Assembly: GCA_963761975.1 (NCBI GenBank)
Contig: CAVXIR010000007.1
Location: 558,965-622,964, forward strand
Source: Vicinamibacterales bacterium
Lineage (GTDB): Bacteria; Acidobacteriota; Vicinamibacteria; Vicinamibacterales; JAMQPK01
Length of the DNA stretch: 64,000 nt
Direction of reading: 5' to 3'
The notes below the pieces were generated by a model. The model was not told where the DNA came from. It ran no database searches and worked only from the letters and a program-made list of their open reading frames with translations. Of the stretch, positions 10,271 through 58,537 are shown one piece after another. Position 1 is the first letter of the stretch. Every line of letters starts with the position of its first letter. The position numbers and the translations under genes are program-made.

Positions 10271-10274
10271 AGAA

Positions 10275-23137: not shown

Positions 23138-23318
23138 GCGGTTCTGGGTTCTGCGGTTCTGGGTTCTAGGTGCTGGTTCGTTCAGGTTCTAGGTTCAGAT
23201 TCTACGTTCGGGTTCTACGTTCAGTACTAGGTTCCGTTTTTGCGCAGAATGTCTGAACCTAGCACCCCGAACTGAACACCGAGAGCCCAGCACCCAGCAC
23301 CCAGAACCGAGAACCGCG
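23138..23318. repeat. 181-bp palindromic array: GGTTCTG/GGTTCTA units (left) and CCCAGCAC/CAGAACC units (right), with termini CGCGGTTCT / AGAACCGCG
   Basis: Read directly. Lies between divergent genes (ferredoxin and the antitoxin). Confidence 0.9.
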
Positions 23319-33248: not shown

Positions 33249-34586
33249 ATGTTTCTGACATCGAAGGCCCTTCCACGGCGGACCCTTCTTCGAGGGCTCG
33301 GCGCCACGCTGGCGCTGCCGTTTCTCGACGCGATGGCACCTGCGATGGCGGTTGCGGCGCAGCGCGTCGCACGGAAGCCCGCGCACCGGTTTCTCGCGTT
33401 CTACGTGCCCAACGGCATGGCCATGGAGTACTGGTCGCCGAAGGCCGAGGGCAGTGCCTTCGAGTTGACGCCGATTCTGCAGCCCTTTGAGCCCTTCCGG
33501 AATCAGATGCTCGTGGTCTCCGGTATCAACGCCAACTGGGTGGCGATTCACGCCGGCGCATCGGGCGCGTTCCTCACCGGCACGGCCCGTGGCGGCAAGA
33601 CCGAGATTGAGATCTTCGCCGATACCTCGATGGATCAGCTGCTGGCCCGTCATTATGCGAACGAGACGCAGATCGGGTCGCTCGAGATGGCGATGGATCG
33701 GCCGGCAAACGCCGGTGCCTGCACCGGCAATCTGAGCTGCGTGTACACCCACACGCTGTCGTGGCGCAGCCCGACGCAGCCGCTGCCGATGGAATGGAAT
33801 CCGCGCGCGGTGTTCGAGAAACTCTTTGGCGACGCTGGCAGCACCGATCGAGCGGCACGTGAGGCGCGGATGCGCCAGCACAAGAGCATCCTCGATTCGG
33901 TCAATGAGAAGCTGGCCTCACTGCGTACCGAGCTCGGGCCGCAGGATCGGGTGCGAGTGGAGCAGTACACCGAGGCGGTCCGCGATGTCGAACGCAGGAT
34001 TCAGCGAGCCGAGCAGCAGACCGATCTCGAGCTGCCGGACATGGATCAGCCGCAGGGCGCGCCGCCGCTGTTCGAGGATCACCTGACGCTGATGCTTGAT
34101 CTGCAGCTCCTCGCGTTCCAGACCGATCTCACACGCGTCATCTCGTTCATGATCGGCAAGGAGCAGAGCGCACGGCCGTATCCGCAGATCGGTGTGCCCG
34201 AGGCGCATCATCCGTTGTCGCATCACCAGGACAACCCGGATCTCATCGCCCACATGTCGAAGATCAACCGGTACCACACCGAGCTGTTCTCGAAGTATCT
34301 CGCAAGATTGCGAGGCACCCCGGACGGAGAGGGCACGCTGCTCGATCACATGACGATTCTCTACGGGTGCGGCATCTCGAACAGCACGCGGCACTCCGGC
34401 GAGAACCTTCCGTTGCTCGTGATGGGCGGCGGAGCGGGCAAGTTGAAGGGCGGCCGTCACGTGAAGTTCACCGACAAGCCGTCGATGGCGAACCTGTTGA
34501 TGACGCTGATGGACAAGATGGATGTCCCGGTCGAACGGATCGGCGGAAGTACTGGCAAGGTTCAGCTCGATACGCTCGCGCTATGA
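33249..34586 (+). CDS. DUF1552 domain protein with Tat-like signal (445 aa)
   Basis: RRTLLRGLGATLALPFLDAM N-terminus and the canonical position directly after a DUF1592 gene. Confidence 0.88.
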   Translation: MFLTSKALPRRTLLRGLGATLALPFLDAMAPAMAVAAQRVARKPAHRFLAFYVPNGMAMEYWSPKAEGSAFELTPILQPFEPFRNQMLVVSGINANWVAIHAGASGAFLTGTARGGKTEIEIFADTSMDQLLARHYANETQIGSLEMAMDRPANAGACTGNLSCVYTHTLSWRSPTQPLPMEWNPRAVFEKLFGDAGSTDRAAREARMRQHKSILDSVNEKLASLRTELGPQDRVRVEQYTEAVRDVERRIQRAEQQTDLELPDMDQPQGAPPLFEDHLTLMLDLQLLAFQTDLTRVISFMIGKEQSARPYPQIGVPEAHHPLSHHQDNPDLIAHMSKINRYHTELFSKYLARLRGTPDGEGTLLDHMTILYGCGISNSTRHSGENLPLLVMGGGAGKLKGGRHVKFTDKPSMANLLMTLMDKMDVPVERIGGSTGKVQLDTLAL

Positions 34587-35842
34587 AGAAGTACGTCATC
34601 GCCGCGTTGCTCGTCGCCGCACCGGTCTACGCGCAGGATCCGCCGTCCGGTGACGGGTCCACGCCTTTGCACTGGGCCGCCTATCGGGACGACCTGGCAA
34701 AAGCCGATCAACTGATTCGCGGCGGCGCGAACGTGAACGCGGCGAACGATCTCGGCGTGACGCCGCTCTGGGCTGCCAGCATCAACGGCAGCGTGGCGCT
34801 CGTGACGCGTCTGCTCGAGGCCGGCGCCAATCCCAACGCTGCCCTCATGTCGGGGGAGACGCCGCTGATGGTCGCGTCGCGATCGGGCAAGACGGCCGCG
34901 GTCGAGACGCTCCTCGCGAAAAGTGCCAATCCCAATGCGCGCGGGGCGCGCGGTCAGACGGCGCTGATGTGGGCCGTCTCGCAGGGGCACGCAGACGTCG
35001 TCAAGCTGCTCGTCGCCGGCGGCGCGGATGTGCATGCGAAGTCCGACAGCTGGAGCCAGATGATGGCCGTGCCCCCGCACGGCCTCCCCGAGTACAACAG
35101 GATGATTCCGCATGGGGCCGACACGGCGCTCATGTTTGCGGCACGCAACGGCGACATCGCGTCGACGAAGGTTCTTGTCGAAGGCGGCGCGAATGTCGAC
35201 GACCAGGATGCCTGGGGAGTGAGCGCGACGACGCTGGCGGTGTTTTCGGGATCTGGTGAAGTTGCGCGTTATCTGCTCGAGAAGGGCGCCGACCCGAACA
35301 ACGACAAACCGGGTTTCACGGCCCTTCACTGCGCCATCATGCGCCGCGACGAACAGACCGTCGCAGCCCTCCTGGCGCGAGGCGCCAATCCCAATATCAC
35401 AGTGAAGGTCTGGACGCCGACGCGGCGAGCCTCGGACGATTACCATTTCATGCCGGCGCTCGTCGATGCGTCGCCATACTGGCTGGCGGCTCGATTCACC
35501 GAGCCTGGCATGATGCGCCTGCTCGCCAAACACGGCGCCGACACCAAAGTGGTCCACGAGTCCAACTACGTGCAAGGCGAAGGCTATCAGCGTCGGAAGG
35601 AACGAACGACGGCGCTGATGGCTGCGCTGGGCATGGGGGGCGGCGTGGCGTGGGTGCCGGTCGATCGCGCCAAGCGCGATGCGCTCATCCTCGAGACGGT
35701 GACGTTGGCCGCCGAGCTGGGTGCCGATGTGAACGTCGCCAGCATTGATGGCCGCACGGCGCTCGATTCCGCACGCGCGCAGAAGCATGAGGCCGTAGTG
35801 GCGTTCCTCGAAGGCCGCGGCGCGGTCGGCAAATCGCGTTAG
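34583..35842 (+). CDS. ankyrin-repeat protein, secreted (419 aa)
   Basis: ATGA overlap with DUF1552. Signal peptide. Repeated TPLHWAA / G.TALMWA..GH...V..LL..GA(D/N) motifs. Confidence 0.85.
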   Translation: MKKYVIAALLVAAPVYAQDPPSGDGSTPLHWAAYRDDLAKADQLIRGGANVNAANDLGVTPLWAASINGSVALVTRLLEAGANPNAALMSGETPLMVASRSGKTAAVETLLAKSANPNARGARGQTALMWAVSQGHADVVKLLVAGGADVHAKSDSWSQMMAVPPHGLPEYNRMIPHGADTALMFAARNGDIASTKVLVEGGANVDDQDAWGVSATTLAVFSGSGEVARYLLEKGADPNNDKPGFTALHCAIMRRDEQTVAALLARGANPNITVKVWTPTRRASDDYHFMPALVDASPYWLAARFTEPGMMRLLAKHGADTKVVHESNYVQGEGYQRRKERTTALMAALGMGGGVAWVPVDRAKRDALILETVTLAAELGADVNVASIDGRTALDSARAQKHEAVVAFLEGRGAVGKSR

Positions 35843-35871
35843 ATCGCTCGCGGCTCAAGGGCTCTCAGACA

Positions 35872-35965
35872 GCATTGCCGTATTTTCGATTGGCAATTGC
35901 CAAATTCATTGGCGATTGGAAATTCCCAATCAATTCACAATCGTCAATTGAGAATGCGGCAATGC
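35872..35965. repeat. GCATTGCC...GGCAATGC palindromic element, copy a (94 bp)
   Basis: Termini GCATTGCCGTATT / AATGCGGCAATGC. The interior is made of CAATTG/GATTGG/CAATC motifs. Lies between convergent gene ends. Confidence 0.85.
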
Positions 35966-35966
35966 G

Positions 35967-36235
35967 TCATGTCCCCGCTTGATTCTCATTCCTCATGACC
36001 GCCCCCAGCCGCTGAACGGCGCGGTTCACGGCCATTCTCGCGCCGTCAGGCGTATTGAATCCAAACTGCTCGGCAATTTCAGCGACGCTCCATTGTGCTT
36101 CGACGCGTGCGATCACGAGCTCCCGCTCACGGGGCTTCAGCCGGCCCATGGCCGCGCGGTAGTGATCGTAGGTTTCATGCTCGAGCGCCTGATCAAGTGG
36201 CGACGGATCCTCAGACGGGAATTCCGGCGGCAGCT
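35967..36235 (-). pseudogene. ECF sigma factor relic; only the linker plus region 4 remain
   Basis: ..YRAAMGRLKPRERELVIARVEAQWSVAEIAEQFGFNTPDGARMAVNRAVQRL is a sigma70 region 4 HTH. No region 2 is present. Upstream it runs straight into the GTTCGTG array. Confidence 0.75.
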
Positions 36236-36236
36236 C

Positions 36237-36355
36237 TTCGTGAAGTTCGTGGAGGTTCGTGGGTTCGTGGGGTTCGTGGGTTCGTGAGTTCGTGGGTTCG
36301 TAGGTTCGTGGAGTTCGTGGTTCGTGAGTTCGTCGGTTTGTAGTTCGTGGTTCGA
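36237..36355. repeat. tandem array of GTTCGTG units (reverse orientation of CACGAAC), about 14 units
   Basis: Read directly. It forms the left arm of an inverted pair with 36936-37075. Confidence 0.9.
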
Positions 36356-36464
36356 ATTCCGCGTACTTCGCGACGAGGTGGTACGGCAAAAACTGCCTCG
36401 GCGGGCGACTTTGGTTGATTTCGCTGGCGTTGTCGCTGGCCCATACATTGCTCCTTCCCTTCGT

Positions 36465-36893
36465 ATGCGTCGCTATCAAGATTTCAAGGCGTGGCAGCTC
36501 GCACGCGACCTGCACCGGAAAGTCTTTGCGATGACGTCAACGGGCCCAGCGTCTCGCGACTTCAAGTTTCGCGACAATATGCGTGACGCGGCTGATTCGG
36601 CGCAGCGGAATTTTCCCGAAGGATTCGGCCGGTTTGCGCCGGCCGACTTTGCACACTTCTTGGATCACTCCCGCGCGTCTCTGCTGGAGGTGAAGAACGC
36701 AATCGGCGAGGGATTCGAGCGTAAGTATTTTCGCAACGACGAGTGCGTCGAGGCAGACTCACTAGCGGCTCGCGCGTTGAAAGCGCTGTCTGGGCTGCAG
36801 CAGTATCTGCGATCTCCGGAGGCGAAACGAAACGCCGACCGCGCCCGCGCGCAACACATTGCGCGACGAACCCAACGAAACTCACACACCTGA
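36465..36893 (+). CDS. four-helix-bundle protein ('23S rRNA intervening-sequence protein' family, 142 aa)
   Basis: MRRYQDFKAWQLARDLHRKVFAMT...RDNMRDAADSAQRNFPEGFGR....F..FL..S..SL.EV...I is the pattern I recognise for this family. Confidence 0.85.
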   Translation: MRRYQDFKAWQLARDLHRKVFAMTSTGPASRDFKFRDNMRDAADSAQRNFPEGFGRFAPADFAHFLDHSRASLLEVKNAIGEGFERKYFRNDECVEADSLAARALKALSGLQQYLRSPEAKRNADRARAQHIARRTQRNSHT

Positions 36894-36935
36894 TAGCGAC
36901 CGAACGAACCCGCTGATCCCCCAAGGGCCGACTTG

Positions 36936-37075
36936 CCACGAACCTACGAACCCCACGAACCCCACGAACCTACGAACTGTACGAACCCCACGAACCCCAC
37001 GAAGCTACGAACTGCACGAACTCCACGAACCCCCGAACTCCACGAACTCTCACGAACCCACGAAAGCCGGTTTCA
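36936..37075. repeat. tandem array of CACGAACC units, about 16 units; right arm of the inverted pair
   Basis: Read directly. Degenerate units begin already at about 36862, inside the last codons of the four-helix-bundle gene. Confidence 0.9.
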
Positions 37076-37133
37076 ACTCGTCGGGCGACGGATTCAACAG
37101 ATCTTCCGGGACCGGCCACGACGGTTCAGCCAT

Positions 37134-37229
37134 TCAGTACGCCGCAATCGCGCCGCCGTAGCCGGATCCGACCACGATGACGTCATAACGGGAGCGCAAT
37201 TCGCCGATGGGCGTTGATAGGCTCGGCAT
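37134..37229 (-). pseudogene. N-terminal stump (31 codons) of an FAD-dependent oxidoreductase (Rossmann GxGxxG)
   Basis: MPSLSTPIGELRSRYDVIVVGSGYGGAIAAY then a stop. The rest of the gene is missing and the array follows about 60 nt downstream. Confidence 0.55.
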
Positions 37230-37348
37230 CTCAGGTCACGGTTGGGCGAAAACGGCCGATAAGCTATCGTGTGTATGTGTAGAAGGCAGATTCTTCCACT
37301 AACCGAAGACCCCTGCCAGCGGAAAGTAATCCACTCACGTCAACGACC

Positions 37349-38227
37349 GTGAACACCGAATCGAACAGCTCCATCGACGCTTCGCTGGTCGAACGCCTCT
37401 ATCGCCGGGCGAAAGCCAAGCGCTGGCATTTGTCGCACGACGCTTTTGCCGCGGTGCTCGAGACGAGTTGCGCCAAGGCTTTTGCGAATGGGGATCCCGA
37501 ATCGGATGAGCTGTCCCGTTACCTCGAGTCGCTGCATCTCGAGGACCTGGCGCTGGCGTGTGCCTGCGCACTCGGCGATGCCGTTGCGTGGGATCATTTT
37601 GTGATGGAGATGCGTCCAGGCCTGTATCGCGCCGCCGACGCCCTCGATCCGTCGGGCGGCGCCCGCGAGCTGGCCGATTCGCTGTACGGCGATCTCTACG
37701 GTGTCGACAATCGCGGCGAAGCGCGACAGTCGCTGTTGCGGTATTTCCACGGCCGCAGCAGTCTCGCCACGTGGCTTCGTGCCGTGCTGGCGCAGCGACA
37801 CGTCGACCGCATGCGTGTGACGCGACGTGTTGAGCCGCTGCCCGAGGAGATCGCTGCCAGTACACCATTCGAAGCCGCCGACGCCGAATGCCCCAAGTAC
37901 GTCGAGTTTCTCCGTACCGCGCTCGAGCACGCGCTGACGCATCTCGAACCACGCGATCGGCTGCGATTGGGTCTCTACTACGCTCAGCAGCTCACGCTCG
38001 CCGAAACCGGCAGGCTCCTGAAGGAACACGAGGCGACAGCGTCGCGGCAGCTGGCACGGACGCGTAAAGCCGTTCGGAATGAGGTGGAAAAGAAGCTCCG
38101 CGCCGGCGGGTTGAGCGAGGCTGAGGTCGCCCGGTGTTTCGAGTGCGCCGCCAAAGACGCCGGGACGATGAATCTCGAAGAGATGTTGGGCTCGCGCAAG
38201 GAATTCGCGCAGGATCGTTCTGTATGA
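37349..38227 (+). CDS. sigma-70 family (ECF-like) RNA polymerase sigma factor (292 aa, GTG start)
   Basis: Region 2-like ..SLATWLRAVLAQRHVD.. and region 4 ..LEPRDRLRLGLYYAQQLTLAETGRLLKEHEATASRQLARTRKAVR. Confidence 0.8.
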   Translation: MNTESNSSIDASLVERLYRRAKAKRWHLSHDAFAAVLETSCAKAFANGDPESDELSRYLESLHLEDLALACACALGDAVAWDHFVMEMRPGLYRAADALDPSGGARELADSLYGDLYGVDNRGEARQSLLRYFHGRSSLATWLRAVLAQRHVDRMRVTRRVEPLPEEIAASTPFEAADAECPKYVEFLRTALEHALTHLEPRDRLRLGLYYAQQLTLAETGRLLKEHEATASRQLARTRKAVRNEVEKKLRAGGLSEAEVARCFECAAKDAGTMNLEEMLGSRKEFAQDRSV

Positions 38228-39273
38228 AGAAGGAACCAATGGCGGACGACCACGATCGTGAGATGTGGCTTGGCCCGATGTTGCGGCAGGGGCCGACGGC
38301 GGTGTCCGATCCGTGTATCGACCCCGAGTCGCTCGCCGCCTGGGCGGAAGGCAAGCTGGACACGACACAGGCTGGTGCCGTTGAGCTGCACGCGTCGAAC
38401 TGCCAGCGCTGTATGGCGATGTTGGCGTCGATGGCACGTACCACTCCGGCCGAGGAAGAACGGAAGGCATCGTGGAGTAGAGCGGTGTTGATGCGATGGC
38501 TGGTCCCGTTGACAGCGGCGGCCACGGCTATCGCGATCTGGGTGCTGGTGCCGGATCGGCCGGTTACACAGGTACCCTCGGCGACTGTGCCGCACGAAAG
38601 CGCCCCGCAGGAAAGCGCGCGGCAGGATCAGTCGCGTCGACTAGCCAAGGAACCCGACGTTCCGGCGCCGAGGCCGGTGCCGGAGGCCGGCAAGCAGGAT
38701 CAATCCGCGCAGGATCAATTCGCACCCGTGCTGCCGGTCGAGCGAGATGCCGCGATCCAGCGAGAGCCGCCCCCAAGCGCCCTCGAGAACGCAGGACGTC
38801 GTGCTGAGGTGAAGGAGGAGCGTCAGTCACTCGATGCACTCAGAGAGCAAAGCCTTTCAACGTTGAGGGATCGAGCGGCGGCGGCGCCATCGCAAGCTCC
38901 CGCGGCACAGCTGCCCTCCGCTCCGGCCCCAGCGGGGAACGAAACGTTTGCCGCTCCAATGGTTCAGCAGCAGCTGGCGGCGCCAGCCGCTCCGTCGAGC
39001 GAGTCGACGTCGCCGACCGATCCGCTCATCCGATGGAGGGTCGTTGGCTGGGTTGCCGTTGAGCGATCGATTGACGGCGGCAACACCTGGATTAAGACGA
39101 CCACGCCTCCTGGTGTGATCCCGAATGGCACGCCCATGCTCTGGATCATGTCTGTTCGAGCCGTGGACAACCTGCGGGGAACGATTTTAACTTCAGACCG
39201 TAGAGAGTTTTACACGACCAACGGCGGTATCTCCTGGGAGCGCGTGCAAGAAAATTCAGTAGCTCCGTTCTAA
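38224..39273 (+). CDS. anti-sigma factor (zf-HC2, single TM) with Pro/Ala-rich linker and C-terminal Asp-box (BNR-like) domain
   Basis: ATGA overlap with the sigma gene. H-x3-C-x2-C (HASNCQRC). TM segment WLVPLTAAATAIAIWVLV. SIDGGNTW and TTNGGISW Asp-box motifs. Confidence 0.75.
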   Translation: MKKEPMADDHDREMWLGPMLRQGPTAVSDPCIDPESLAAWAEGKLDTTQAGAVELHASNCQRCMAMLASMARTTPAEEERKASWSRAVLMRWLVPLTAAATAIAIWVLVPDRPVTQVPSATVPHESAPQESARQDQSRRLAKEPDVPAPRPVPEAGKQDQSAQDQFAPVLPVERDAAIQREPPPSALENAGRRAEVKEERQSLDALREQSLSTLRDRAAAAPSQAPAAQLPSAPAPAGNETFAAPMVQQQLAAPAAPSSESTSPTDPLIRWRVVGWVAVERSIDGGNTWIKTTTPPGVIPNGTPMLWIMSVRAVDNLRGTILTSDRREFYTTNGGISWERVQENSVAPF

Positions 39274-39312
39274 GAACAGTGGGGAAGGACCCCACGTTCA
39301 AAGGAGTTTCGA

Positions 39313-40788
39313 ATGCTTGCACGGCTCGGTTTTCTCGCTTCTGTCTGTGTTGCGCTGACTGCCTTTTCAATTCCGGTTAATCCGACCATAGAGCCAGTGC
39401 AGGCCGCGCCCGCAGCCGGACAGGGCTCAACCACGCTGGACGATCAGGTCGATCTGAGCGTCACCGTCTACAACTCGGATATCGCGCTCGTCCGCGATGT
39501 GCGGAACCTCGACCTTCCGCGCGGCACGTTCAATCTGAGTTTCATGGACATCGCGGCGACCGTGAATCCCGCGACCGTGCTGTTCCGATCGCTCAGCGAG
39601 CCGTCGCGTGTGAGCGTCCTCGAGCAGAATTACGAGTACGACCTCCTCGAGCCCGAGAAGCTCTTGCGCAAGTACGTCGGCCGCGACGTGACGCTCGTAC
39701 GCAGCCGGCAGGTGGACGGCACGACACAGCAGGAAGAAGTCACGGCGCACCTGCTGAGTTACAACACTCAGCCGGTCTGGAGAATCGGCAAGGAAATCGT
39801 GACCGGATTGCACGCCGATCACATTCGCTTTCCCGAGTTGCCCGACACCCTCTACAGCCGCCCGACGCTGATTTGGACGCTGGAGAACGGCGGCGCGTCA
39901 CGCCACCGCGTCGAGGCGAAATACCTGGCTGGCAAGCTGTCATGGAATGCCGATTACGTGCTGACGGTGGCGCGCGACGACAAGGCGGGCGACGTCGATG
40001 GCTGGGTGACGCTGACCAACGGCAGCGGCACGGCGTTTCGCAACGCGAAGCTGCAACTCGTGGCGGGCGATCTGAATCGCGTGCGCCAGAACATCGACAG
40101 ACTGATGATGGCCGACCAAGCCATGGGTCGTCGAGAGATGGCCGCTGCGCCGATGGCGCAGGAAGCGTTTTCCGAGTATCACCTCTACACGCTTGGCCGA
40201 AAGACGACGATCAACAACAACGAGACCAAGCAGGTCAGCATGCTGTCCGGGACCGGCTTCCCGGTTCACAAGCGGTATGTCGTCAACGGCAATCAGTTCT
40301 ACTATCACAACGCTGCGAGGCCCGGCGCGCCGATCAAAGACAACGTGGAAGTGTTCTATCAGTTCAAGAACGAAGAGAAGAGCGGCCTGGGCATGCCGAT
40401 GCCGGCCGGCACCGTCCGTGTGTATCAGTCCGATTCAAACGGCGGCGTGCAGTTTGTCGGTGAAGACCGCATCATGCACACGCCGAAGGACGAAACGCTG
40501 AACCTGAAGATCGGAAACGCGTTCGATGTGGTGTGCGAGCGCAATCAGGTCGACTTCGAAAAGATCGCCGCCAATGTCTACGAAATCGAGTACGCCATCA
40601 CGTTGCGCAACCGGAAGACCACGCCGATTACGGTCGAGGTGAACGAGCCCGTCGGCGCCGCGACCTGGCGCATGCTCCATGCGTCGCACAAATGGGTCAA
40701 AACGGCCGCATTCGCGGCGCAGTTCACGGTTCCGGTGGATGCAGGTGCGGAAGCGGTGCTGAAATTTCGGATTCGAGTGAACGGGTAG
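39313..40788 (+). CDS. DUF4139 domain protein, secreted (491 aa)
   Basis: Signal peptide. Pattern ..VTVYNSDIALVRD.R...L..G......D....V.P.T........YEYDL.. plus ..W.A.Y.L....D...D..GWVT..N.SG..F..A.L.LVAGD matches my memory of DUF4139. Confidence 0.75.
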   Translation: MLARLGFLASVCVALTAFSIPVNPTIEPVQAAPAAGQGSTTLDDQVDLSVTVYNSDIALVRDVRNLDLPRGTFNLSFMDIAATVNPATVLFRSLSEPSRVSVLEQNYEYDLLEPEKLLRKYVGRDVTLVRSRQVDGTTQQEEVTAHLLSYNTQPVWRIGKEIVTGLHADHIRFPELPDTLYSRPTLIWTLENGGASRHRVEAKYLAGKLSWNADYVLTVARDDKAGDVDGWVTLTNGSGTAFRNAKLQLVAGDLNRVRQNIDRLMMADQAMGRREMAAAPMAQEAFSEYHLYTLGRKTTINNNETKQVSMLSGTGFPVHKRYVVNGNQFYYHNAARPGAPIKDNVEVFYQFKNEEKSGLGMPMPAGTVRVYQSDSNGGVQFVGEDRIMHTPKDETLNLKIGNAFDVVCERNQVDFEKIAANVYEIEYAITLRNRKTTPITVEVNEPVGAATWRMLHASHKWVKTAAFAAQFTVPVDAGAEAVLKFRIRVNG

Positions 40789-40802
40789 GGTAAGTGTCGT
40801 GT

Positions 40803-40897
40803 GCATTGCCACATTGAGAATTGACGATTGCCGGACTAATTGGCGATTGAGAAATCGTCAATCAATGGACAATTGCCAATCGAAAATGTGGCAATGC
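40803..40897. repeat. GCATTGCC...GGCAATGC palindromic element, copy b (95 bp)
   Basis: Termini GCATTGCCACATT / AATGTGGCAATGC. Lies between convergent gene ends. Confidence 0.85.
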
Positions 40898-40910
40898 TGC
40901 CGACTCGGAA

Positions 40911-41969
40911 CTAGTGGCTCACGCTCGTCACATGTTCCTTAAGTAAGTCTCGCCCAAAGTCTCCATTGAAATCACGCCAGACGGAATGCACGTGATTGCC
41001 GTCGTTCTGCGTGTTGTCGAACTCGATCAGGAAGGTTGGCCCCTGCACGCGGTAGTAATGCTTCTTTCCCCGCTCGAACTCGCCGGCCCAGGCGAACGTC
41101 AGCTTGTCGAGCCCCGCTTTCTTGAGGGCCGCCATCCGGTCGGCGGCAATATCAGGTGCCATCACCGAGACGTAGGCGTCGACGACCCGCATCAGCATCT
41201 CGCGCTGCTTCGGTTGAAGATCCGTTGCGGCAATGCCCGTCGGGGTGAGCGGATTGACGGTGCCCTCGTTGCGCGTGACGATGTCGTTCGGCGCCGTCGC
41301 GTTGATCACGGCTTTTGCGCGCTGTGATTCGTCGAGCGCCATCACGAGCTCGCGGGCCGGATCTTCTTCGAAGCCGAGCACCCTCAAACCCTTCTTGGGG
41401 CCGTCCTTCACTTCTGCCGGGTTTGATCCGAAGAAGTGCGGTGCGGCTGAGACCATGTTGCCGCCGGTCACGGTGAAGTTGAGCGAAACGTGATGGCCTT
41501 CGACTTTCCATCCCCACGTTCCCTTTGCTGAAGGCGTGCCGAACACCCACACGTAATACTTCAGCGGGTTGCGCTCGAGCTTGCCGGGTTTTGAACCCGG
41601 CGGGTTCTCAATGAGGTTAAGGATGCTTTCAAGCTCCATGATGGCGGAGGCCGTCATATAGCCTTTTTGGCTGAGGCCCGCCTTCATCAGGTTATGCGCC
41701 GCCTGCCGCTGGGGCTCGGTCATCTTCTCAATGGTCAGGCCCACCCGCGGATGCATCTCGGTAGGAACGAAGCCGAAGCGCTCGCGCTCTTTGGCATTGT
41801 CGAACGCGAAGCTGGCGGTCTGCTTCTGTTCGGGGGCGAGTGTCGAAAGGAACTTGTTGGCCGCGTCGGCCATGTTCGCGGGGGACCGATCGGCGGCATA
41901 GGTTGCGGCGAAGTACGCCAGTACGCAGCCAAGCCACAGGGCAAACCGAGCTGAACGTAGTGCACGCAT
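40911..41969 (-). CDS. DUF3500 domain protein, secreted (352 aa)
   Basis: ..FLSTLAPEQK....F.F....R..F.F.P......G.....M...Q...A..L....LS..G; W.W...GHH.SLN.T and a terminal ..DFG.D.L..H are typical. Confidence 0.8.
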   Translation of the reverse strand: MRALRSARFALWLGCVLAYFAATYAADRSPANMADAANKFLSTLAPEQKQTASFAFDNAKERERFGFVPTEMHPRVGLTIEKMTEPQRQAAHNLMKAGLSQKGYMTASAIMELESILNLIENPPGSKPGKLERNPLKYYVWVFGTPSAKGTWGWKVEGHHVSLNFTVTGGNMVSAAPHFFGSNPAEVKDGPKKGLRVLGFEEDPARELVMALDESQRAKAVINATAPNDIVTRNEGTVNPLTPTGIAATDLQPKQREMLMRVVDAYVSVMAPDIAADRMAALKKAGLDKLTFAWAGEFERGKKHYYRVQGPTFLIEFDNTQNDGNHVHSVWRDFNGDFGRDLLKEHVTSVSH

Positions 41970-42048
41970 GGGAGAATCCTTTCGAACCACAAAGACACGA
42001 AGACACGAAGGATTTGTGCCGGGAAGAGTATCATAGCCCCAACTATTC

Positions 42049-44210: not shown

Positions 44211-44250
44211 GCGAACGGTGCCTCGTTTACCTCTGTGGTTGCATTTCCTG

Positions 44251-44413
44251 GTGTCCCGGCCGCGTGATTCGTTGCATAAGTCCCGGAGCGCGGCGCCCGG
44301 ATGGCAAGGCGCGAGGCGCGCGGGAATTATCGGGAATATTTGAGCGCCGAGCAACGCAGCCAGCCGGGATGCCCCGCCCGGGAGTTATGTGACGAATCAC
44401 GCGGCCGGGACAC
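44251..44413. repeat. 163-bp element bounded by a perfect 22-bp inverted repeat (GTGTCCCGGCCGCGTGATTCGT / ACGAATCACGCGGCCGGGACAC)
   Basis: Read directly. Pairing continues imperfectly for about 11 more nt inward. Lies between convergent genes, abutting the sigma factor stop. Confidence 0.85.
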
Positions 44414-45090
44414 TAGCTCGCGCCGATTTTGGCGAACACGGCGGCGACGACCCGGTCGCAGCGCGACTGATGGAACGTGAACGCGTGCGGCGCGCTCAGG
44501 CCCGCCCGCTCCAGGAGGTCGCGCCTGAGTGTGGCTTTGGCGCGTGACAGCCGCGTTTTCACCACATCATCGCTGACACCGAGCGCTTCGGCTGTTTCCG
44601 ACGTGCTCATCCCCTGAACTTCGCGCAGCACGAAGACCTCGCGGGACCCATCGGGCAGTTCGTCCACCGCCGCTTCGAGGAGTGCCGCCAGCTCGCGTGC
44701 GAAGGCGAGACGCTCGGGATCTGGCGCCGCGCCGCCCGATGAGATCGTCTCAACGACGCCGTCTTCGCCGTCGAGCGATTCGTATCGCCCCTGTCTGCGC
44801 GCCCGGGCAATCGCCTCGTTCACGGCAATCCTCGTCAGCCATGTGGCGAACGCCGCGCGCCGGTCGAACTGGCGCAGGTGAGCATACGCGTTGACGTGGG
44901 CCTGCTGCATCACGTCCTCGGCTTCGCGGTCGTCGCGCAGGATGGCACGCACTGCCCGATAGATCCGTTCGTTGTGGCGTCTCATCAGAACTTCGAAAAG
45001 CGCCGTCTGCCCTTGGAGAACGCGCGTCACGACCTCCTCGTCCGAAAAGCCGATCCATCGCTCGAGGACAGCGCCGCTGACCATATGCAT
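44413..45090 (-). CDS. ECF-type RNA polymerase sigma factor (225 aa)
   Basis: Region 2 ..EDVMQQAHVNAYAHLRQFDRRAAFATWLTRIAVNEA.. and region 4 ..LPDGSREVFVLREVQGMSTSETAEALGVSDDVVKTRLSRAKATLR. Confidence 0.85.
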   Translation of the reverse strand: MHMVSGAVLERWIGFSDEEVVTRVLQGQTALFEVLMRRHNERIYRAVRAILRDDREAEDVMQQAHVNAYAHLRQFDRRAAFATWLTRIAVNEAIARARRQGRYESLDGEDGVVETISSGGAAPDPERLAFARELAALLEAAVDELPDGSREVFVLREVQGMSTSETAEALGVSDDVVKTRLSRAKATLRRDLLERAGLSAPHAFTFHQSRCDRVVAAVFAKIGAS

Positions 45091-46467: not shown

Positions 46468-47047
46468 GAGCGTTTTCGGTATCTGTGTAGCCGCGGCCAG
46501 TCGTCGCAGCAGGGCACGCAGCCGGCGGTCGCGAACCAGCTCGACGAGGCGGGAAAATGCATCTTCGCGACCCATTCCGATTACGCGATGGGAGCGCCCT
46601 TCGCTCAGCTCCCAACGCTTCGTACGCGCTGCAGATGCATTTTCCGGTCACGGGAGTACGTCGCCTCGCTCGCGATGGTTCGCGACCGCCGCCTGCGTGC
46701 CCCGCCGCGGCGCAGTGGTGGTCGCCCGGCGCGACGTGTGAGAGCCGAGCGGCCACAGGCAAACGACGGGGTGGCCGTCCGTCGTGGGTGGGTGATGGCT
46801 GGCGGTCGATAGGTCACAGCCCGACGGCGTCAGTCCAAAAACAACGGCGGCGGCCACCTTCGCGGACGACCAACCCTGGTCGGCCGCGCCATGGCAGAGA
46901 GGGATATCGCCGCCGCGTTGTTTTTCCGGGCCCGGGGCCCCCAACGCGGCAGCCGCGTTGGGGTGGCCTGTGTCGACCGTGACCGCCAGCCATCACCCAC
47001 CCACGACGGACGACTCGCCGTTCGCCACACAGATACCGAAAACGCTC
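46468..47047. mobile_element. MITE-like non-autonomous element (580 bp) with perfect 21-bp TIRs and TA target duplication
   Basis: GAGCGTTTTCGGTATCTGTGT at 46468-46488 and its exact reverse complement at 47027-47047. TA at 46466-46467 and at 47048-49. No credible transposase ORF inside. Confidence 0.7.
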
Positions 47048-53286: not shown

Positions 53287-54036
53287 ATGAACCGTCGAGT
53301 GTTCGGCATGACTGTCCTCGGAGCGCTAGCCGCCGCACGTTCGGCATTCGGGCAAGCGCCAAACTGGAGCCAATTCAAGCCGCTCCCGGGCTCATTGAAG
53401 GAGAAGATGCACTCGGGCCAGCAGGTTCGAATCGTTGGTGCGACCTTCGACACCACGCGAGCGCAGCTCCAGGAACTCATCAAGAAAAACGGCAAGGTCG
53501 ACCTGTTCTCGCTGGACGCGCAACACCGTCCGCTGCCGGACGAGCGAGAACTGGTGAAGTTCTGCAAGCTTGCCGAGGAGCTCGGCGCGGGCGTTCAATT
53601 GCGCATCCAGCATCCCAAGTGGGCCTATATGACAGGTCGGTACGCCGACCTCGGTGTCCTGGCCGTCATGGTGCCACTGGTGGAAGAGGTCGAGACGACC
53701 GACGAAGCCATCAACAACTTCTACTATCCGCCGATCGGCAACCGCAGCTGGGGTGGGGAATTCAGATATGGAGAGAAGCCGCCGACCGATCGCCTGAAGT
53801 ACGCGCAGTGGTGGAACGGCAACGGACTGCTGGGCTTTCAAATCGAAACGCTTCGCGGCGCGCTCAATGCGAGAAACATCGTCAAGCCGGGCGTCGATTG
53901 GATCTCGTGGGGACCTGGGGACATGGCGTTCGACATCGAGCGACACTCCAACAGCCCGTTCAAGACTATTGAAGAGGCACACGCGTACGTGAAAGAGCAG
54001 TTGAAAGGCTATGACGTACGACTGCCGAGCAACTAG
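53287..54036 (+). CDS. HpcH/HpaI aldolase / citrate lyase-like family protein with signal peptide (249 aa)
   Basis: AGGAGG RBS. ..DAQH.P.....L..F...A...G....LRI.H......TGRYADLGVLAVMVP.VE..E.. resembles the HpcH/HpaI TIM barrel. Moderate certainty. Confidence 0.6.
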   Translation: MNRRVFGMTVLGALAAARSAFGQAPNWSQFKPLPGSLKEKMHSGQQVRIVGATFDTTRAQLQELIKKNGKVDLFSLDAQHRPLPDERELVKFCKLAEELGAGVQLRIQHPKWAYMTGRYADLGVLAVMVPLVEEVETTDEAINNFYYPPIGNRSWGGEFRYGEKPPTDRLKYAQWWNGNGLLGFQIETLRGALNARNIVKPGVDWISWGPGDMAFDIERHSNSPFKTIEEAHAYVKEQLKGYDVRLPSN

Positions 54037-54075
54037 CCGGTAGCCAGTAGCGGGTAGCGACCAGCTACCAGCTAG
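54034..54075. repeat. GGTAGC / GCTACC mini-palindrome filling the whole 35-nt gap between convergent stop codons
   Basis: TAGCCGGTAGCCAGTAGCGGGTAGCGACCAGCTACCAGCTAG. Confidence 0.8.
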
Positions 54076-54911
54076 ACGAAGTCTATCCGGAAGATATACC
54101 CGTGCGTAGGCGACACGTCGTCTTGCCAGCCGGGATGGATGCCGGCGTCGCTGCTGTAGAGTGCGCCGTTATACCAGGCAAGGCCGTGCGGATCGCTGGA
54201 GCCCTTGTCGAACGTCGCCGTCGCGAGCGTTCGCCCCGTTGCGGCGTCATACTGAATCAGCCCTGCCGATCCGTCGGCGAGGCCGGTGACGAGCCAGATT
54301 GAATTGTCGCGGCGGTCGTACGCCATGCCGTGTGCGCGCGGCACGTTGTAGTTGATGAAGAACTCGGGCTGCCACGTCTTGGCATCGACGCGAAGAATGC
54401 CGCGAAGACGGAGCGCGGCAATGTAGAGCTTGCCGTCGACATATTCGATACCGTGGCATCCGCCGCCGTTGTCTTTCGGTCCAAGCGGAATCTGACGGTG
54501 CGAAATGACCTTGCCGTTCAGATCCATTTCAAAGATGCCCTGTGGCGCCGCGTTCGCGGCCATCCAGACATGACCGCCGCCCCAGGCAATGCCGCTGGTA
54601 TTTTTGGACGGGGTTTTGACGGTCTTCAGCAGCTTGCCTTCCCAATCGGTCAGAACGGCATTGTCTGATTTCTGTTCGCCAATCCACAGACCCTCGGGCG
54701 CGACCGCAATCCCGTTCGGATACATCTCGGGGCTTTTGAAGAGGGCCACCGTCTTGATCTTCTTGACGGGAATGGGTGGCGGCGCGTTTCGATTGCCTTC
54801 GCCGAGGAACGTGGACCCCTGGCGCGGCTGCGGAGCCTGCGCGTGAGCCAATCCTGTACCGAGTAAACCGGCGCCGACCGTTTCCAGGAACGCTCTTCGT
54901 CTCATCGCCAT
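54072..54911 (-). CDS. secreted beta-propeller protein (glutaminyl-cyclase-like/NHL-like), Tat signal (279 aa)
   Basis: MAMRRRAFLETVGAGLLGTGLAHA, then repeated ..PNGIA.., ..SGIAWGGG.., ..HGIEY.DGKLY.., ..HGMAYD.. blades. Confidence 0.65.
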   Translation of the reverse strand: MAMRRRAFLETVGAGLLGTGLAHAQAPQPRQGSTFLGEGNRNAPPPIPVKKIKTVALFKSPEMYPNGIAVAPEGLWIGEQKSDNAVLTDWEGKLLKTVKTPSKNTSGIAWGGGHVWMAANAAPQGIFEMDLNGKVISHRQIPLGPKDNGGGCHGIEYVDGKLYIAALRLRGILRVDAKTWQPEFFINYNVPRAHGMAYDRRDNSIWLVTGLADGSAGLIQYDAATGRTLATATFDKGSSDPHGLAWYNGALYSSDAGIHPGWQDDVSPTHGYIFRIDFV

Positions 54912-54974
54912 GGCTCCATCCTCCGGGGAAGACCTGATTATCCGGGACGGCCACATGGTACCCGAGACAGGCCA

Positions 54975-55655
54975 CTAGTTCTTCGAAAAAATCAGTATGT
55001 GTTGCCGTGGCAGCCGGCCGTCGACGTTCCCGAACCTGTACCCTTCGGCTTCGAGCTCCATTCGGGCTTCGGCGACAGACAGTTTGTGCTCAAACCGAAT
55101 CGGTACCTCCGGGTCCTCTTTCCGGTATTCGAGGAGGACCAGCCGTCCGCCTGGCTTCAGCGCGTTGCGCAGGCCGCGCAGCATCTTCTGCGGCTCTGAG
55201 AACTCGTGATAGACGTCCACCATGAGCACCAAATCCACCGACGAAGGCGGCAGCTTTGGATCATCAGCGGCGCCCTGCACCAGCGTCACGTTGGCGACCC
55301 GCTCACCAGCCAGGCGGGTAGCAAGCATCTTCAACATCTCGGGTTGAAGATCGGTCGCGTAGACACGGCCCTTCGATCCGACGCGCGATGCAAGCCGCAC
55401 GGTGAAATATCCCGAGCCGGCACCGACGTCAGCCACCGTCAATCCAGTGAGCGTTCCCAGGGCATCGAGCGCCTTGTCGGGCTCTTCCTCGGTTTCGCGT
55501 TCGGAGCGCTCGAGCCACTCGGCGCCCTGCCAGCCCATGACGTTTGCGAATCGACGGCCGGAAATTGGATGAACGCCCGGCGCCGCAACGGTTTGCGCGA
55601 GGGCCATTCCCGTGGCCACGAGGACGACCAGCGTGGCCAGTTTCAACGGTCCCAT
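54975..55655 (-). CDS. class I SAM-dependent methyltransferase with signal peptide (226 aa)
   Basis: VADVGAGSGYFTVRLA (motif I), ..VYATDL.., ..VDLVLMVDVYHE.. and PGGRLVLLE. Confidence 0.8.
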   Translation of the reverse strand: MGPLKLATLVVLVATGMALAQTVAAPGVHPISGRRFANVMGWQGAEWLERSERETEEEPDKALDALGTLTGLTVADVGAGSGYFTVRLASRVGSKGRVYATDLQPEMLKMLATRLAGERVANVTLVQGAADDPKLPPSSVDLVLMVDVYHEFSEPQKMLRGLRNALKPGGRLVLLEYRKEDPEVPIRFEHKLSVAEARMELEAEGYRFGNVDGRLPRQHILIFSKN

Positions 55656-55692
55656 GTGCCCGGAGTTTATACTTCCTACGCGAGTGAAAACC

Positions 55693-56322
55693 ATGACGAT
55701 CAATTACGAATGGTATCGGGCCGGCGACCGAGATGAAACAACCAAGCTGCTCGGCGAAGCATTCAGCGAGCGGGATCCTCCGGCCGTTGCGGTAGGGCTG
55801 ACCTCGTCCGAGTTCGAGCATTTCATCCGGCTCCTGTGTCCAAAAGCTGCGGAGGAAGGATTGTCGATCGTCGCCCGAGACGGCGCCACCGGTGAGATGG
55901 TGGGCGCTCTTCTGGCCGAAGACTCTGCCTCGACGATTCCCGAAGGATTGGAGACCTTGAGCCCGAAGCTCAATCCCATTTTCGACATTCTCGGACAGCT
56001 CGATGCCGAGTACCGCAATGGCGGGCGCGCCAGGCCGGGAGAATCGCTGCACCTTTTTCTGCTCGGTGTCGCACGCGGGCATGCCGGGCAGGGGATTGGC
56101 CATGGTCTGGTTGCGGCCTGTTTGAAGAACAATGCGCCGCGCGGCTTTCGCATCGCGGTGACCGAGGCCACCAACAAGACATCGCAGCACATCTTTCGAA
56201 AGCAGGGTTTCGTTGAGCGGGTGCGACGATCGTATTCAGACCACCGCTTTGAAGGACAGGCACACTTCCTGTCGATTGCGGCGGAACACGGCGGACCCGT
56301 TTTGCTCGATAAGGCGATCTAA
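55693..56322 (+). CDS. GNAT family N-acetyltransferase (209 aa)
   Basis: ..LFLLGVARGHAGQGIGHGLVAACL.. acetyl-CoA binding motif (Q/R-x-x-G-x-G/A). Confidence 0.7.
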   Translation: MTINYEWYRAGDRDETTKLLGEAFSERDPPAVAVGLTSSEFEHFIRLLCPKAAEEGLSIVARDGATGEMVGALLAEDSASTIPEGLETLSPKLNPIFDILGQLDAEYRNGGRARPGESLHLFLLGVARGHAGQGIGHGLVAACLKNNAPRGFRIAVTEATNKTSQHIFRKQGFVERVRRSYSDHRFEGQAHFLSIAAEHGGPVLLDKAI

Positions 56323-56323
56323 G

Positions 56324-56425
56324 GCATTGCCGCATTTTCAATTGACAACTGCCATATTGATTGACGATTCACACTTGGTCAGTCGCCAATCAATTAGAAA
56401 TTGTCAATTGAAAATGTGGCAATGC
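56324..56425. repeat. GCATTGCC...GGCAATGC palindromic element, copy c (102 bp)
   Basis: Termini GCATTGCCGCATTTTCAATTGACAA / TTGTCAATTGAAAATGTGGCAATGC. Lies between convergent gene ends. Confidence 0.85.
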
Positions 56426-56439
56426 ATGAAGGCCTTCGT

Positions 56440-56817
56440 TCATGCCTGCCGACCCCTACGGTTCGCCCTCCGCCCTTTGCCGGCGCTCGACGTATACCGC
56501 CACGCCATCTCGAGCACCTCACGCAAATCGCCTCGCTTCACGATTGTCAGCCGGACCAGGACGACTGGATAGCTCGCGTAATGCTTCCGAACGTAATACG
56601 TCGATGGATCTTTGACGACCAGCAAGTCGCGGTTCACGAACCCGACCTGAACGACGAGCGAATCGGGGTCTGCCGCCTTGTTGGTGGCGAGACACGCGAG
56701 CATTTTCCCGCGCAGCTTCAGTGCGGGCGATCCGTACATCGTGCCTTCTTCGACGTCAGGTAAAGAGCCGCCCAACTCACGCACGACGTCGAAGGCTGCC
56801 GACTTCTTGCTATGCAT
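56440..56817 (-). CDS. MmcQ/YjbR family DNA-binding protein (125 aa)
   Basis: ..ALKLRGKMLA......D...LVV.V........V..DP..YY...HY..YP.VLVRL matches the YjbR-like pattern. Overlaps the antiporter 3' end by 8 nt. Confidence 0.65.
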   Translation of the reverse strand: MHSKKSAAFDVVRELGGSLPDVEEGTMYGSPALKLRGKMLACLATNKAADPDSLVVQVGFVNRDLLVVKDPSTYYVRKHYASYPVVLVRLTIVKRGDLREVLEMAWRYTSSAGKGRRANRRGRQA

Positions 56818-58351
56818 CGAGCATCTCCAAATCCTCGCGCGGGGTCGCGTGCAACTCGGCCCAGTCGAGCTCTTCCTCGAGCCGATGAAACGCATCGTCT
56901 GAGATCTTCCCCCCGCTCCGCAATTTCGCGAGCAGCTCGCGCTGTGCGCAAATGGCATCCAACCGGATGCGGTCATGCCCGGTGTCGGCTTGTGGATTCG
57001 AGCGATTCTGGGCGACCGTGCGCATGGCTTCGTATTCGGCCCGTACGCCTGCAACCGCGTCGCTGTTCCGGTCGCGAAGCGTGGCAAGCGCGGCATCAAC
57101 AAGGGCGGTGCGGGCTCGGGAGACTTCTCCTTCGAGTGAACGGTCGGGCTCGAGCCTGAGCCAGCGTATGAGCAGATTCACCGTGAGCCCCTGAACGATC
57201 AACGACCCCAGCACCACGATAAACGCGCTGAGCACGATGACATCGCGATGGGGAAACCCGGCCGGAAGCGCGAACGCGGTGGCGAGTGTGACGAGCCCGC
57301 GCATTCCACACCACGAGATGAGAAGCGCCTCCCGCGGCGTCGTCGATTCGAACCTTGCGCCCAGTCGAAACACCCGCGGTGCCAGGCTGCTCGTCATGAC
57401 CCACACGATGCGGACGAGTACGACGACGACGAGAACCGTCAGGGCAAACCCGATGGCGTTCCATCGCGTGGCATCGTCCAGACGCGTCAGAATCGTGCGT
57501 GCCTGAAGCCCCATCAGGAGAAAGGCGAGCACGTTGAGGACGAAGACGGTGAGCTCCCAGATCGCATACGAGTGCACGCGATCGCGCGCGCTTTGAATCG
57601 CCGGACCGTCGCGGGCCACGGTCATCGCGAACGCCACGATCGCCAGAATCGGTGAAATGTGCAGGTGCTCGGCGATGACCCACGTGCCGAACGTGACGAC
57701 GAATTCCGAGACTCGAGCCGTGAGCGTCTGCCCGAGCCACGCCTTCATCCTGAAATAGAGCTTTGCGAACACCCACCCAAGCAGGAGGCCGCCGGGCGCC
57801 GCGATAATCAATTGCGGAGCCATCGACCCTATCGATGGCTCCTCATGCGTGGCGATGGCAACCGCCGCCGTAAACATCAAGAGCGACGTGGCATCATTCA
57901 GCAGGCTTTCACCCTGCAGAATCGCCATGGTGCGGCGGGGGAGCGGAAACTTCGTCAGAACAGCCGCCGCCGCGGCTGCGTCTGGCGGCGCCACAATCGC
58001 GCCGAGTGCAATCGCCGCAGCGAGCGGCATCCCAGCGAGTGCCCAGCCGGTCCACGCCACAGCTGCGGTTGTCAGCACAACGGCGAAGAGCGCAAGCCCG
58101 GTGAGAGGCAGCCAGTCGCGTCGCAGCTCGCGCGGCGGAAGGTCGTAGGCCGCATCGAGCAGCGCGGGTGCGATGAACAACGCGAGCGCGAGGCGCGGCT
58201 CCATCTCGATCTCCGGCGCCCACGGCAGCGCCGCGACGCACGCGCCGGCAAACGCGAGCATCGTCGGATACGGCGCGCCGATATGGCCGGAGAGCTTCAA
58301 GAGGACAATCGAGACGAGCAGGAGCGCGAGCAGGCTCTCGAAGAGGGCCAT
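56810..58351 (-). CDS. Na+/H+ antiporter (CPA1 family, 513 aa)
   Basis: Eleven to twelve TM segments, ..LLNDATSLLMF.. motif and a C-terminal soluble helical domain. Confidence 0.88.
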   Translation of the reverse strand: MALFESLLALLLVSIVLLKLSGHIGAPYPTMLAFAGACVAALPWAPEIEMEPRLALALFIAPALLDAAYDLPPRELRRDWLPLTGLALFAVVLTTAAVAWTGWALAGMPLAAAIALGAIVAPPDAAAAAAVLTKFPLPRRTMAILQGESLLNDATSLLMFTAAVAIATHEEPSIGSMAPQLIIAAPGGLLLGWVFAKLYFRMKAWLGQTLTARVSEFVVTFGTWVIAEHLHISPILAIVAFAMTVARDGPAIQSARDRVHSYAIWELTVFVLNVLAFLLMGLQARTILTRLDDATRWNAIGFALTVLVVVVLVRIVWVMTSSLAPRVFRLGARFESTTPREALLISWCGMRGLVTLATAFALPAGFPHRDVIVLSAFIVVLGSLIVQGLTVNLLIRWLRLEPDRSLEGEVSRARTALVDAALATLRDRNSDAVAGVRAEYEAMRTVAQNRSNPQADTGHDRIRLDAICAQRELLAKLRSGGKISDDAFHRLEEELDWAELHATPREDLEMLDA

Positions 58352-58354
58352 CGC

Positions 58355-58537
58355 CTACCGCTTTTTCCGGGTTGCTGTTCGTTTCCGCCGGGTAGCCGTT
58401 CGTTTCCGCTTTACACGCTCAGGCAGCGTCTTTCCGCCGGTCTCCCGGTTCCATTCCTCGAATGTCTTGTTGGAGATTTTTCCCTGAACCAGCAATTCGG
58501 CAAATTTCCGGCGCTGCGCCTGGCTCTTGAAGGGCAT
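58355..58537 (-). CDS. small basic protein (60 aa)
   Basis: MPFKSQAQRRKFAELLVQGKIS.. with a tandemly duplicated tail RKRTATR-RKRTATR. Confidence 0.45.
   Translation of the reverse strand: MPFKSQAQRRKFAELLVQGKISNKTFEEWNRETGGKTLPERVKRKRTATRRKRTATRKKR

Follow-up and report, generated by a model that had tools for sequence, protein, structure and literature searches.

A low-copy family of ATTG-repeat near-palindromes placed directly behind stop codons in soil Vicinamibacterales

Three short, AT-rich near-palindromes, each set between the stop codons of two convergent genes in a 64,000-nucleotide stretch of a Vicinamibacterales contig (hereafter, the window), raise the question of whether they are mobile repeats, bidirectional terminators or elements of another kind. 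The extents of 94–102 bp and the common termini given for these elements in the initial annotation proved exact (E1–E3; Table 1): all three carry perfect GCATTGCC-NN-ATT termini on both arms, and GCATTGCCNNATT occurs six times without mismatch in the window, once per arm. With up to one mismatch allowed, the window holds 8 GCATTGCCNNATT sites against 0.86 expected, a count reached in 0 of 100 shuffles; the common 13-nt termini of the six arms are therefore far beyond chance and denote a real family. Aligned in both orientations, E1–E3 have a mean column identity of 75%, and their GC content of 39–43% compares with ~61% in the window. A hidden Markov model (HMM) was built from the six arms in their context, and an nhmmer search of the 64-kb window returned no full copies beyond E1–E3; solitary GCATTGCCNNATT ends beyond chance were likewise absent from the window.

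Table 1. Positions of the three elements, their flanking genes and related hairpins, and states of the DUF3500 3′ junction in the loci compared
Feature	Locus	Position	Strand	Details
E1, imperfect palindrome	Window	35872..35965	.	94 nt; termini GCATTGCC-RY-ATT; GC 41.5%
E2, imperfect palindrome	Window	40803..40897	.	95 nt; GC 43%
E3, imperfect palindrome	Window	56324..56425	.	102 nt; GC 39%
Ankyrin-repeat gene	Window	34583..35842	+	Pfam Ank and L037 gene call; TAG stop 35840-35842, 29 nt before E1
Sigma-70 region-4 short ORF (relic)	Window	35967..36149	-	Pfam Sigma70_r4_2; 60-aa L037 gene call; TGA stop 35967-35969, 1 nt after E1
DUF4139 gene	Window	39313..40788	+	Pfam and gene call; TAG stop 14 nt before E2
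DUF3500 gene	Window	40911..41969	-	Pfam and gene call; stop 40911-40913, 13 nt after E2
GNAT acetyltransferase gene	Window	55684..56322	+	Pfam; TAA stop 56320-56322, 1 nt before E3
YjbR-domain gene	Window	56440..56817	-	Pfam; stop 56440-56442, 14 nt after E3
Second ATTG-core family	Window	8199-8340
Second ATTG-core family	L002	6265-6342
Second ATTG-core family	L003	5257-5333
Second ATTG-core family	L009	7040-7118
Second ATTG-core family	L019	9309-9425
DUF3500 3′ junction	L037			ATTG element
DUF3500 3′ junction	L041			DUF3500 protein identity 96%; GGTTC-type repeat hairpin; gene pair unchanged
DUF3500 3′ junction	L042			DUF3500 protein identity 97%; hairpin absent; neighbour gene different
DUF3500 3′ junction	L038			DUF3500 protein identity 91%; two hairpins, AGTTNNC and CAGGAGA units
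DUF3500 3′ junction	L039			DUF3500 protein identity 88%; hairpin of ATTAGGAG units
DUF3500 3′ junction	L040			DUF3500 protein identity 81%; hairpin of GGGGTAA units

Public gene calls for the source contig (ENA assembly ERZ25039586, contig_8226), together with Pfam domain assignments, bore out the convergent contexts proposed earlier for all three elements, that is, an ankyrin-repeat gene facing a sigma-70 region 4 relic, DUF4139 facing DUF3500 and GNAT facing YjbR. The DUF3500 product is 100% identical to P0001 over 352 aa, and no transposase or integrase is found among the genes called around E1 and E2. Somewhere between E1 and E2, the ENA contig (L037) and the window are out of step by 2 nt, a minor indel that distinguishes two assemblies of one genome.

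From either strand, each element is predicted to fold into a single imperfect hairpin of ~45 bp (z from −4.6 to −11.7), with ΔG values of −47.4 (+ strand) and −36.8 (− strand) kcal/mol for E1, −43.8 kcal/mol on the + and − strand alike for E2, and −51.9 (+ strand) and −56.2 (− strand) kcal/mol for E3. Strong hairpins immediately downstream of stops between convergent genes would suit canonical Rho-independent (hairpin plus U-tract) bidirectional terminators, yet we regard that explanation as extremely unlikely: no T-run follows the stem on either strand of E1–E3, the flanks are GC-rich coding sequence, and the stems are AT-rich, ~45 bp long and mismatched, as opposed to the 5–14-bp GC-rich stems of terminators. 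Scans for terminators and promoters found no site at any of the three elements, for which reason a canonical terminator or promoter identity was rejected. Around E1 and E2 (35000–42000), canonical hairpin-plus-U terminators numbered 6, compared with 6.1 in shuffles, and so were not enriched. Hairpin-plus-T-run sites at 54000–58500 showed a modest excess (8 versus 3.6 in shuffles), none of them at a convergent junction with an element.

To define the family beyond the window, a pattern requiring the strict termini 55–85 nt apart was run on species-representative genomes and on JGI metagenomes. Among the species-representative genomes, 16 loci matched, 12 of which belong to the family, all in 6 Vicinamibacterales MAGs with 1–4 strict copies per related MAG; the JGI metagenomes yielded 20 matching loci, of which ~11 (soil, rhizosphere and sediment) are family members. 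When the 8-kb loci were scanned with the HMM, slightly degenerate second copies emerged in L001, L008 and L009, 2.4–3.4 kb from the first, implying local clustering of copies; altogether, strict pattern and HMM scans gave about 30 copies beyond the window. That termini in other genomes are perfect is due in part to ascertainment by the search pattern, and copies found by HMM alone have ~1 mismatch per terminus. The genome search proposed in the initial annotation, for the terminus near its reverse complement, accordingly returned further copies with conserved termini in Vicinamibacterales MAGs and soil metagenomes, and no account of such repeats in Vicinamibacteria or Acidobacteria came up in the literature searched. 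E1–E3 thus belong to a genuine, hitherto undescribed repeat family of soil Vicinamibacterales (Acidobacteriota) that is low in copy number.

Several other identities were set aside. Viral contigs gave 0 matches to the family and plasmids none, so phage or plasmid cargo was rejected. The window had 0 Rfam matches at the gathering threshold, and a known RNA family was also rejected, the sole permissive match being a chance similarity to mir-552 (16.5 bits against a threshold of 100). Pattern matches at L011, L012, L015, L022, L024, L028, L029, L030 and L032 were excluded as a different element with a 27-nt terminal inverted repeat, GGGGTCAGGTCTTGCATTGCCACATTT, which contains the same 13-mer by chance and has a GC-rich interior unrelated to the ATTG family; those at L013, L020, L025 and L036 were excluded as unrelated hairpins. 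The GGGGTCAGGTCTTGCATTGCCACATTT element is a MITE-like family in its own right (nine loci in hosts of ~70% GC, one labelled as a Proteobacteria MAG), with nested or tandem copies in L028 and L030.

To assess placement relative to genes, a log-likelihood model of codon usage was trained on long ORFs from these loci and used to score the flanks. The 18 junctions scorable on both sides comprised 9 convergent, 9 tandem (stop, element, start of the next gene) and 0 divergent cases, and genes reading towards an element stopped 1–30 nt away from it, typically 4–10 nt. The strict placement between convergent genes claimed earlier therefore holds for the window's three copies only, since 9 of the 18 junctions across the family are tandem; the rule for the family is a position directly behind at least one stop codon, and a matching placement has been reported for REPs (PMC3733652).

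At a probability of roughly one half, the explanation that we favour is a set of lineage-specific, dispersed extragenic near-palindromes, nearest in type to REPIN, ERIC and Correia elements, that have a role as 3′-UTR hairpins and that spread anciently and were then inherited vertically. From sequence, we infer that an element directly behind a stop codon would become part of the 3′ UTR in transcripts of one or both neighbours and would there fold into the ~45-bp imperfect hairpin; because the element is palindromic, transcripts arriving from either side would present the same hairpin. Most likely, this hairpin would be a U-tract-independent 3′-end element that limits read-through into the neighbour and blocks 3′-to-5′ exonucleases, as has been shown for REPs of Escherichia coli, one of which was found both to limit read-through and to protect 3′ ends; REPs sited between two convergent genes are associated with raised expression of the pair (bioRxiv 10.64898/2026.03.23.713779). 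The family would have spread long ago by some mechanism and may since have been passed down vertically, with change by unit-sized slippage and occasional recombination between copies.

The arms of the element have a regular anatomy. Each is a fixed array of about six 7–8-nt units (an ATTG core plus a 3–4-nt spacer) beginning with GCATTGCC, and is matched by its reverse complement in the opposite arm; the CAATTG, GATTG and CAATC motifs noted inside the elements at the outset are real and resolve into ATTG cores at fixed arm offsets. On either strand, ATTG lies at offsets 2, (10), 17, 24, (32), 36 and 43 of the 5′ arm, with CAAT mirrored in the 3′ arm, and successive cores stand 7 nt apart in 62 cases, 8 nt in 23 and 15 nt in 28. 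In an alignment of 24 copies, representing 19 independent junctions, column identity was 98.6% in the ATTG cores and 69% in the spacers; since the search pattern did not cover the cores at columns 18–21 and 25–28, ascertainment does not account for the conservation of these two. Constraint thus differs between cores and spacers. Mean copy-to-copy identity was 75%, compared with 61% for shuffled interiors, which makes the interiors homologous and more than similar in composition. Non-orthologous copies were 64–86% identical, and since no such pair exceeded 86%, nothing points to recent transposition.

This periodicity raises an alternative, that the ATTG cores are recognition arrays for a single-strand RNA- or DNA-binding or nucleoid protein (for example, one with a cold-shock domain) that tunes the hairpin and read-through. 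Cold-shock-domain proteins cover ~7 nt per monomer, have a reported preference for ATTGG/CCAAT and can act in antitermination. In keeping with such a reader, conservation has a period of 7–8 with cores fixed and spacers free, the ATTG arm is always the 5′ arm in either transcript, about half of the common units read ATTGG, and the CspB protein of Bacillus subtilis binds heptamer repeats at one protein per heptamer (reviewed in PMC4679880). However, the core conservation could instead reflect a mobilising enzyme, and unrelated heptads (GGTTCTG, AGTTCTC, ATTAGGAG and GGGGTAA) occupy equivalent junctions, so that no single sequence-specific reader explains the whole hairpin class. We consider such arrays unlikely as the primary explanation, while the periodic difference between cores and spacers does point to a possible heptad-reading factor.

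Many of the loci are, by flank homology, the same junction in different species, and the copies at these junctions have persisted by vertical descent. Orthologous copies were 84–97% identical, with a substitution divergence of 2–12% compared with 4–15% at third codon positions of the adjacent genes, which indicates mild to moderate constraint on the element. Most of the differences between orthologues fell close to the apex or took the form of unit-sized indels (7, 11 and 15 nt). Two metagenome contigs from one site carry the same copy (L017 3805–3906 and L021 37–145) with a single extra CAATTGT unit as the sole difference, which is direct evidence of unit slippage. Truncated copies also occur (the second copy in L019, 8402–8488, reduced to ~55 nt; and L001 5300).

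Copies also recombine with one another. In L009 (3225–6191), L019 (5555–8488) and L005/L003, 2.76 kb separates two copies; at that place L002 carries a single hybrid (5320–5421) and lacks the intervening 2.76-kb segment of two divergent genes; the crossover lies inside the element, near its apex, and the deletion is therefore attributed to recombination between copies. A missing two-gene segment bounded by two copies, and the absence from L040 of a 1.1-kb segment that contains E3, could also be taken as signs of site-specific recombination sites that resemble attC or cassette boundaries, as could the combination of conserved termini with a variable palindromic interior. That explanation is very unlikely, because the termini (GCATTGCC and GGCAATGC) depart from RYYYAAC/GTTRRRY, copies are set between housekeeping-type genes in convergent or tandem arrangement and form no co-oriented cassette arrays, the L002 crossover is placed as in homologous recombination between repeats, and E3 sits in the middle of its variable segment and not at an edge. 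In detail, E3 lies within a ~1.1-kb YjbR/GNAT segment (window 55704–56809) that is absent from L040 (1–924), where Na/H exchanger and methyltransferase genes adjoin with an 8-nt overlap.

Orthologous junctions in relatives, reached by following the DUF3500 gene (loci L038–L042), revealed extensive turnover. The 3′ junction of DUF3500 takes six states among L037–L042, at protein identities of 81–97% (Table 1). In the alignment of the window with L041, homology ends at both stop codons, the segment between them being different throughout; at the E1 junction, L039 lacks a long hairpin. In relatives of 81–97% protein identity, the intergenic segment at the E1 and E2 orthologues was unalignable or wholly replaced, so that no clean empty site could be delimited. 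The element is thus dispensable at a given junction, with close relatives having a different hairpin or none.

Pairing within individual copies showed no sign of being maintained. Compensatory change was seen at 0 of 21 consensus pairs, and the variable R/Y positions combined independently in the two arms (GU 10, AU 6, AC 4 and GC 4). Self-complementarity between arms (75%) equals identity between copies (75%), so that pairing looks inherited from a palindromic consensus and not kept copy by copy, and within-copy maintenance of pairing was rejected on this basis. In tandem contexts, the sense strand was no more stable than the antisense strand and had no sense-strand G·U bias, and RNA-level selection there was rejected for lack of extra stability in the sense RNA. 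The earlier suggestion of a bidirectional terminator family is accordingly plausible in the sense of a hairpin-only 3′-end element but not in its canonical sense, given the missing U-tract, the empty scan, the 0 compensatory pairs and the lack of G·U bias.

These same results bring forward the main rival to a 3′-UTR role, namely that the copies are selfish or neutral relics of a decayed miniature mobile palindrome (MITE or REPIN) that survive only in the harmless short spaces behind stops and have no host function. Consistent with relics are the lack of compensatory evolution and of RNA-strand bias, the equality of arm-to-arm complementarity and copy-to-copy identity, the truncated copies in L019 and L001, the low copy number, the loss or replacement of the element at orthologous junctions in close relatives, and the avoidance of divergent promoter regions, which is expected of any tolerated insertion. 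On the other hand, ATTG cores are ~99% conserved next to spacers that vary freely, which is not a product of neutral decay, orthologous copies evolve at ~0.3–1 times the rate of third codon positions, and no target-site duplication, near-identical paralogues or parent element were seen. The target duplications that had been proposed as a check were sought in 18 copies, none of which had a direct repeat at its two borders. We judge tolerated relics to be doubtful, albeit the foremost competitor, with the periodic core conservation arguing against pure neutrality.

The family shares traits with several known systems. ERIC/IRU elements of Enterobacteria and Correia (CREE/NEMIS) elements of Neisseria are hairpin-forming MITEs, imperfect palindromes of ~100–150 bp in transcribed intergenic regions, often 3′ of genes, which fold in mRNA and affect its stability or termination. 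The likeness lies in the ~100-nt scale, the imperfect palindromy and the intergenic position often 3′ of genes; the differences are that ERIC and Correia elements have terminal inverted repeats around a distinct core and a high copy number, with a TA target duplication in Correia, whereas the ATTG family has no target duplication, is a repeat-built palindrome throughout and has no evident sequence similarity to either. Hairpin-only ‘I-shaped’ terminators are known from high-GC bacteria, and bidirectional terminators are pervasive at convergent genes. These too are hairpins without a U-tract that lie downstream of stops and are common to convergent genes, but they are unique, with short GC-rich stems, and do not form a dispersed AT-rich family with conserved termini. 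Integron attC sites are likewise imperfect palindromes (60–140 nt), located 3′ of ORFs, in which the ends are conserved and the interior varies, but they have other core motifs, cassette arrays and an integrase context, whereas recombination in the ATTG family occurs between whole copies.

Closest in kind are the RAYT-associated REPs and REPINs, which are extragenic, dispersed and ~100 nt long, with inverted halves that form one long predicted hairpin in single-stranded DNA or mRNA, and which lie between unidirectional and convergent ORFs, downstream of coding regions (PMC3116915, PMC3733652); vertical inheritance, conservation at orthologous sites and a plausible 3′-UTR role as terminator or stabiliser are further points in common. 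REPINs differ in their GTAG or CGTC tag (the ends and flanks of 36 ATTG-family half-elements have no consistent tag, the commonest flank, CAC before GCATTGCC, occurring in 9 of the 36), in a 20–40-bp REP unit (the ATTG element as a whole is one ~45-bp imperfect hairpin, but its arms are arrays of ATTG heptads in which no such REP palindrome is recognisable), in tens to hundreds of copies per genome as opposed to 1–4 strict copies in related MAGs, in a dominant master sequence (the ATTG family has no master with near-identical copies) and in belonging to a phylum other than Acidobacteriota. The tandem heptamers of cyanobacteria and Beggiatoaceae (STRR; TAACTGA; PMC4679880) resemble the family as intergenic arrays of 7-nt units, with several families per lineage and turnover between relatives, but consist chiefly of direct repeats, frequently located immediately 5′ of start codons, with no complementary array pairing into a hairpin behind stops.

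By kind, the ATTG family is therefore best filed with extragenic hairpin repeats of the REPIN/ERIC type, and our best reading is a REPIN/ERIC-like dispersed palindrome that serves, or is tolerated, as a 3′-UTR hairpin (a bidirectional insulator or stabiliser). Because several defining features fail, we claim membership of none of REP/REPIN, MITE, attC or intrinsic terminators. The initial description as MITE- or REP-like was right as to kind (dispersed extragenic near-palindromes in several species, 75% versus 61% identity), but defining hallmarks are missing, with no target-site duplication, no GTAG/CGTC tag and 1–4 strict copies. Hardly any molecular genetics has been done on Vicinamibacterales, which abound in soils, and, if the hairpins define transcript ends, they would show how convergent genes are insulated in a lineage seemingly without canonical hairpin-plus-U terminators and would improve operon and 3′-UTR annotation of soil MAGs. 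The elements are, in addition, substrates for gene-deleting recombination and markers of rapid intergenic turnover; if only tolerated relics, they would add one more routine entry to the known palindromic repeats of bacteria.

Further long hairpins occur in the window, at 409–507, 8199–8340, 10158–10271, 11639–11792, 23140–23310, 44248–44416, 46502–46712 and 46776–47012, several of them built from tandem GGTTCTG or AGATTGNC units, and across the loci compared ~15 of 19 other long hairpins lie at convergent junctions. In our best reading, the ATTG family is one member of a class of hairpins, built from repeats and placed at gene 3′ ends, that extends across the lineage. A bolder form of this idea, a so far undescribed system throughout the Vicinamibacterales in which hairpins of 90–240 nt, many with arms of tandem 7–8-nt units, mark 3′ ends and above all convergent junctions, is speculative and in our estimate improbable. 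It would fit the leading position of the G/U-rich arm, whichever strand is transcribed, in ~16 of 18 non-ATTG cases, the conserved unit cores and variable spacers of the ATTG family, and the replacement of whole hairpins by ones of unrelated unit type among relatives whose flanking protein is 96% identical. If true, it would call for a dedicated generator (slippage plus template switching, or hairpin-targeting mobilisation), a heptad-reading single-strand-binding factor or both, and would provide tunable, U-tract-independent termination or insulation.

The remaining hairpins fall into several types. Those at 409–507, 10158–10271, 11639–11792 and 23140–23310 are 100–180 nt long, with tandem GGTTCTG/GGTGCTG/GGTTCGT heptads in the 5′ arm and their complement in the 3′ arm; three lie behind stop codons (two convergent, one tandem), and the context of 23140–23310 is uncertain. 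The very stable, GC-rich long hairpins at 44248–44416, 46502–46712 and 46776–47012 have arms of 32–58 nt and occupy two convergent junctions (Cupin_2-like/ECF sigma and 196-aa ORF/PmbA_TldD); at the ECF/cupin junction, L038 carries another hairpin and L039 a gap of only 18 nt. Arm polarity is shared widely, with a G-rich 5′ arm and a C-rich 3′ arm in ~16 of 18 independent non-ATTG hairpins (window and L001–L042); given palindromic symmetry, either transcript thus begins with a G/U-rich arm. A second ATTG-core hairpin family, with 8-nt units (AGATTGGC/AGATTCGC) and lacking the GCATTGCC termini, occurs in several species (Table 1) and gives a weak HMM match at window 8257–8309. Finally, a family of AGTCGCA/AGTCGAC heptads lies beside a GCATTGCC copy in L007 (~1650–1690) and, in L001 (2842–2962), forms a 120-nt hairpin at a convergent junction.
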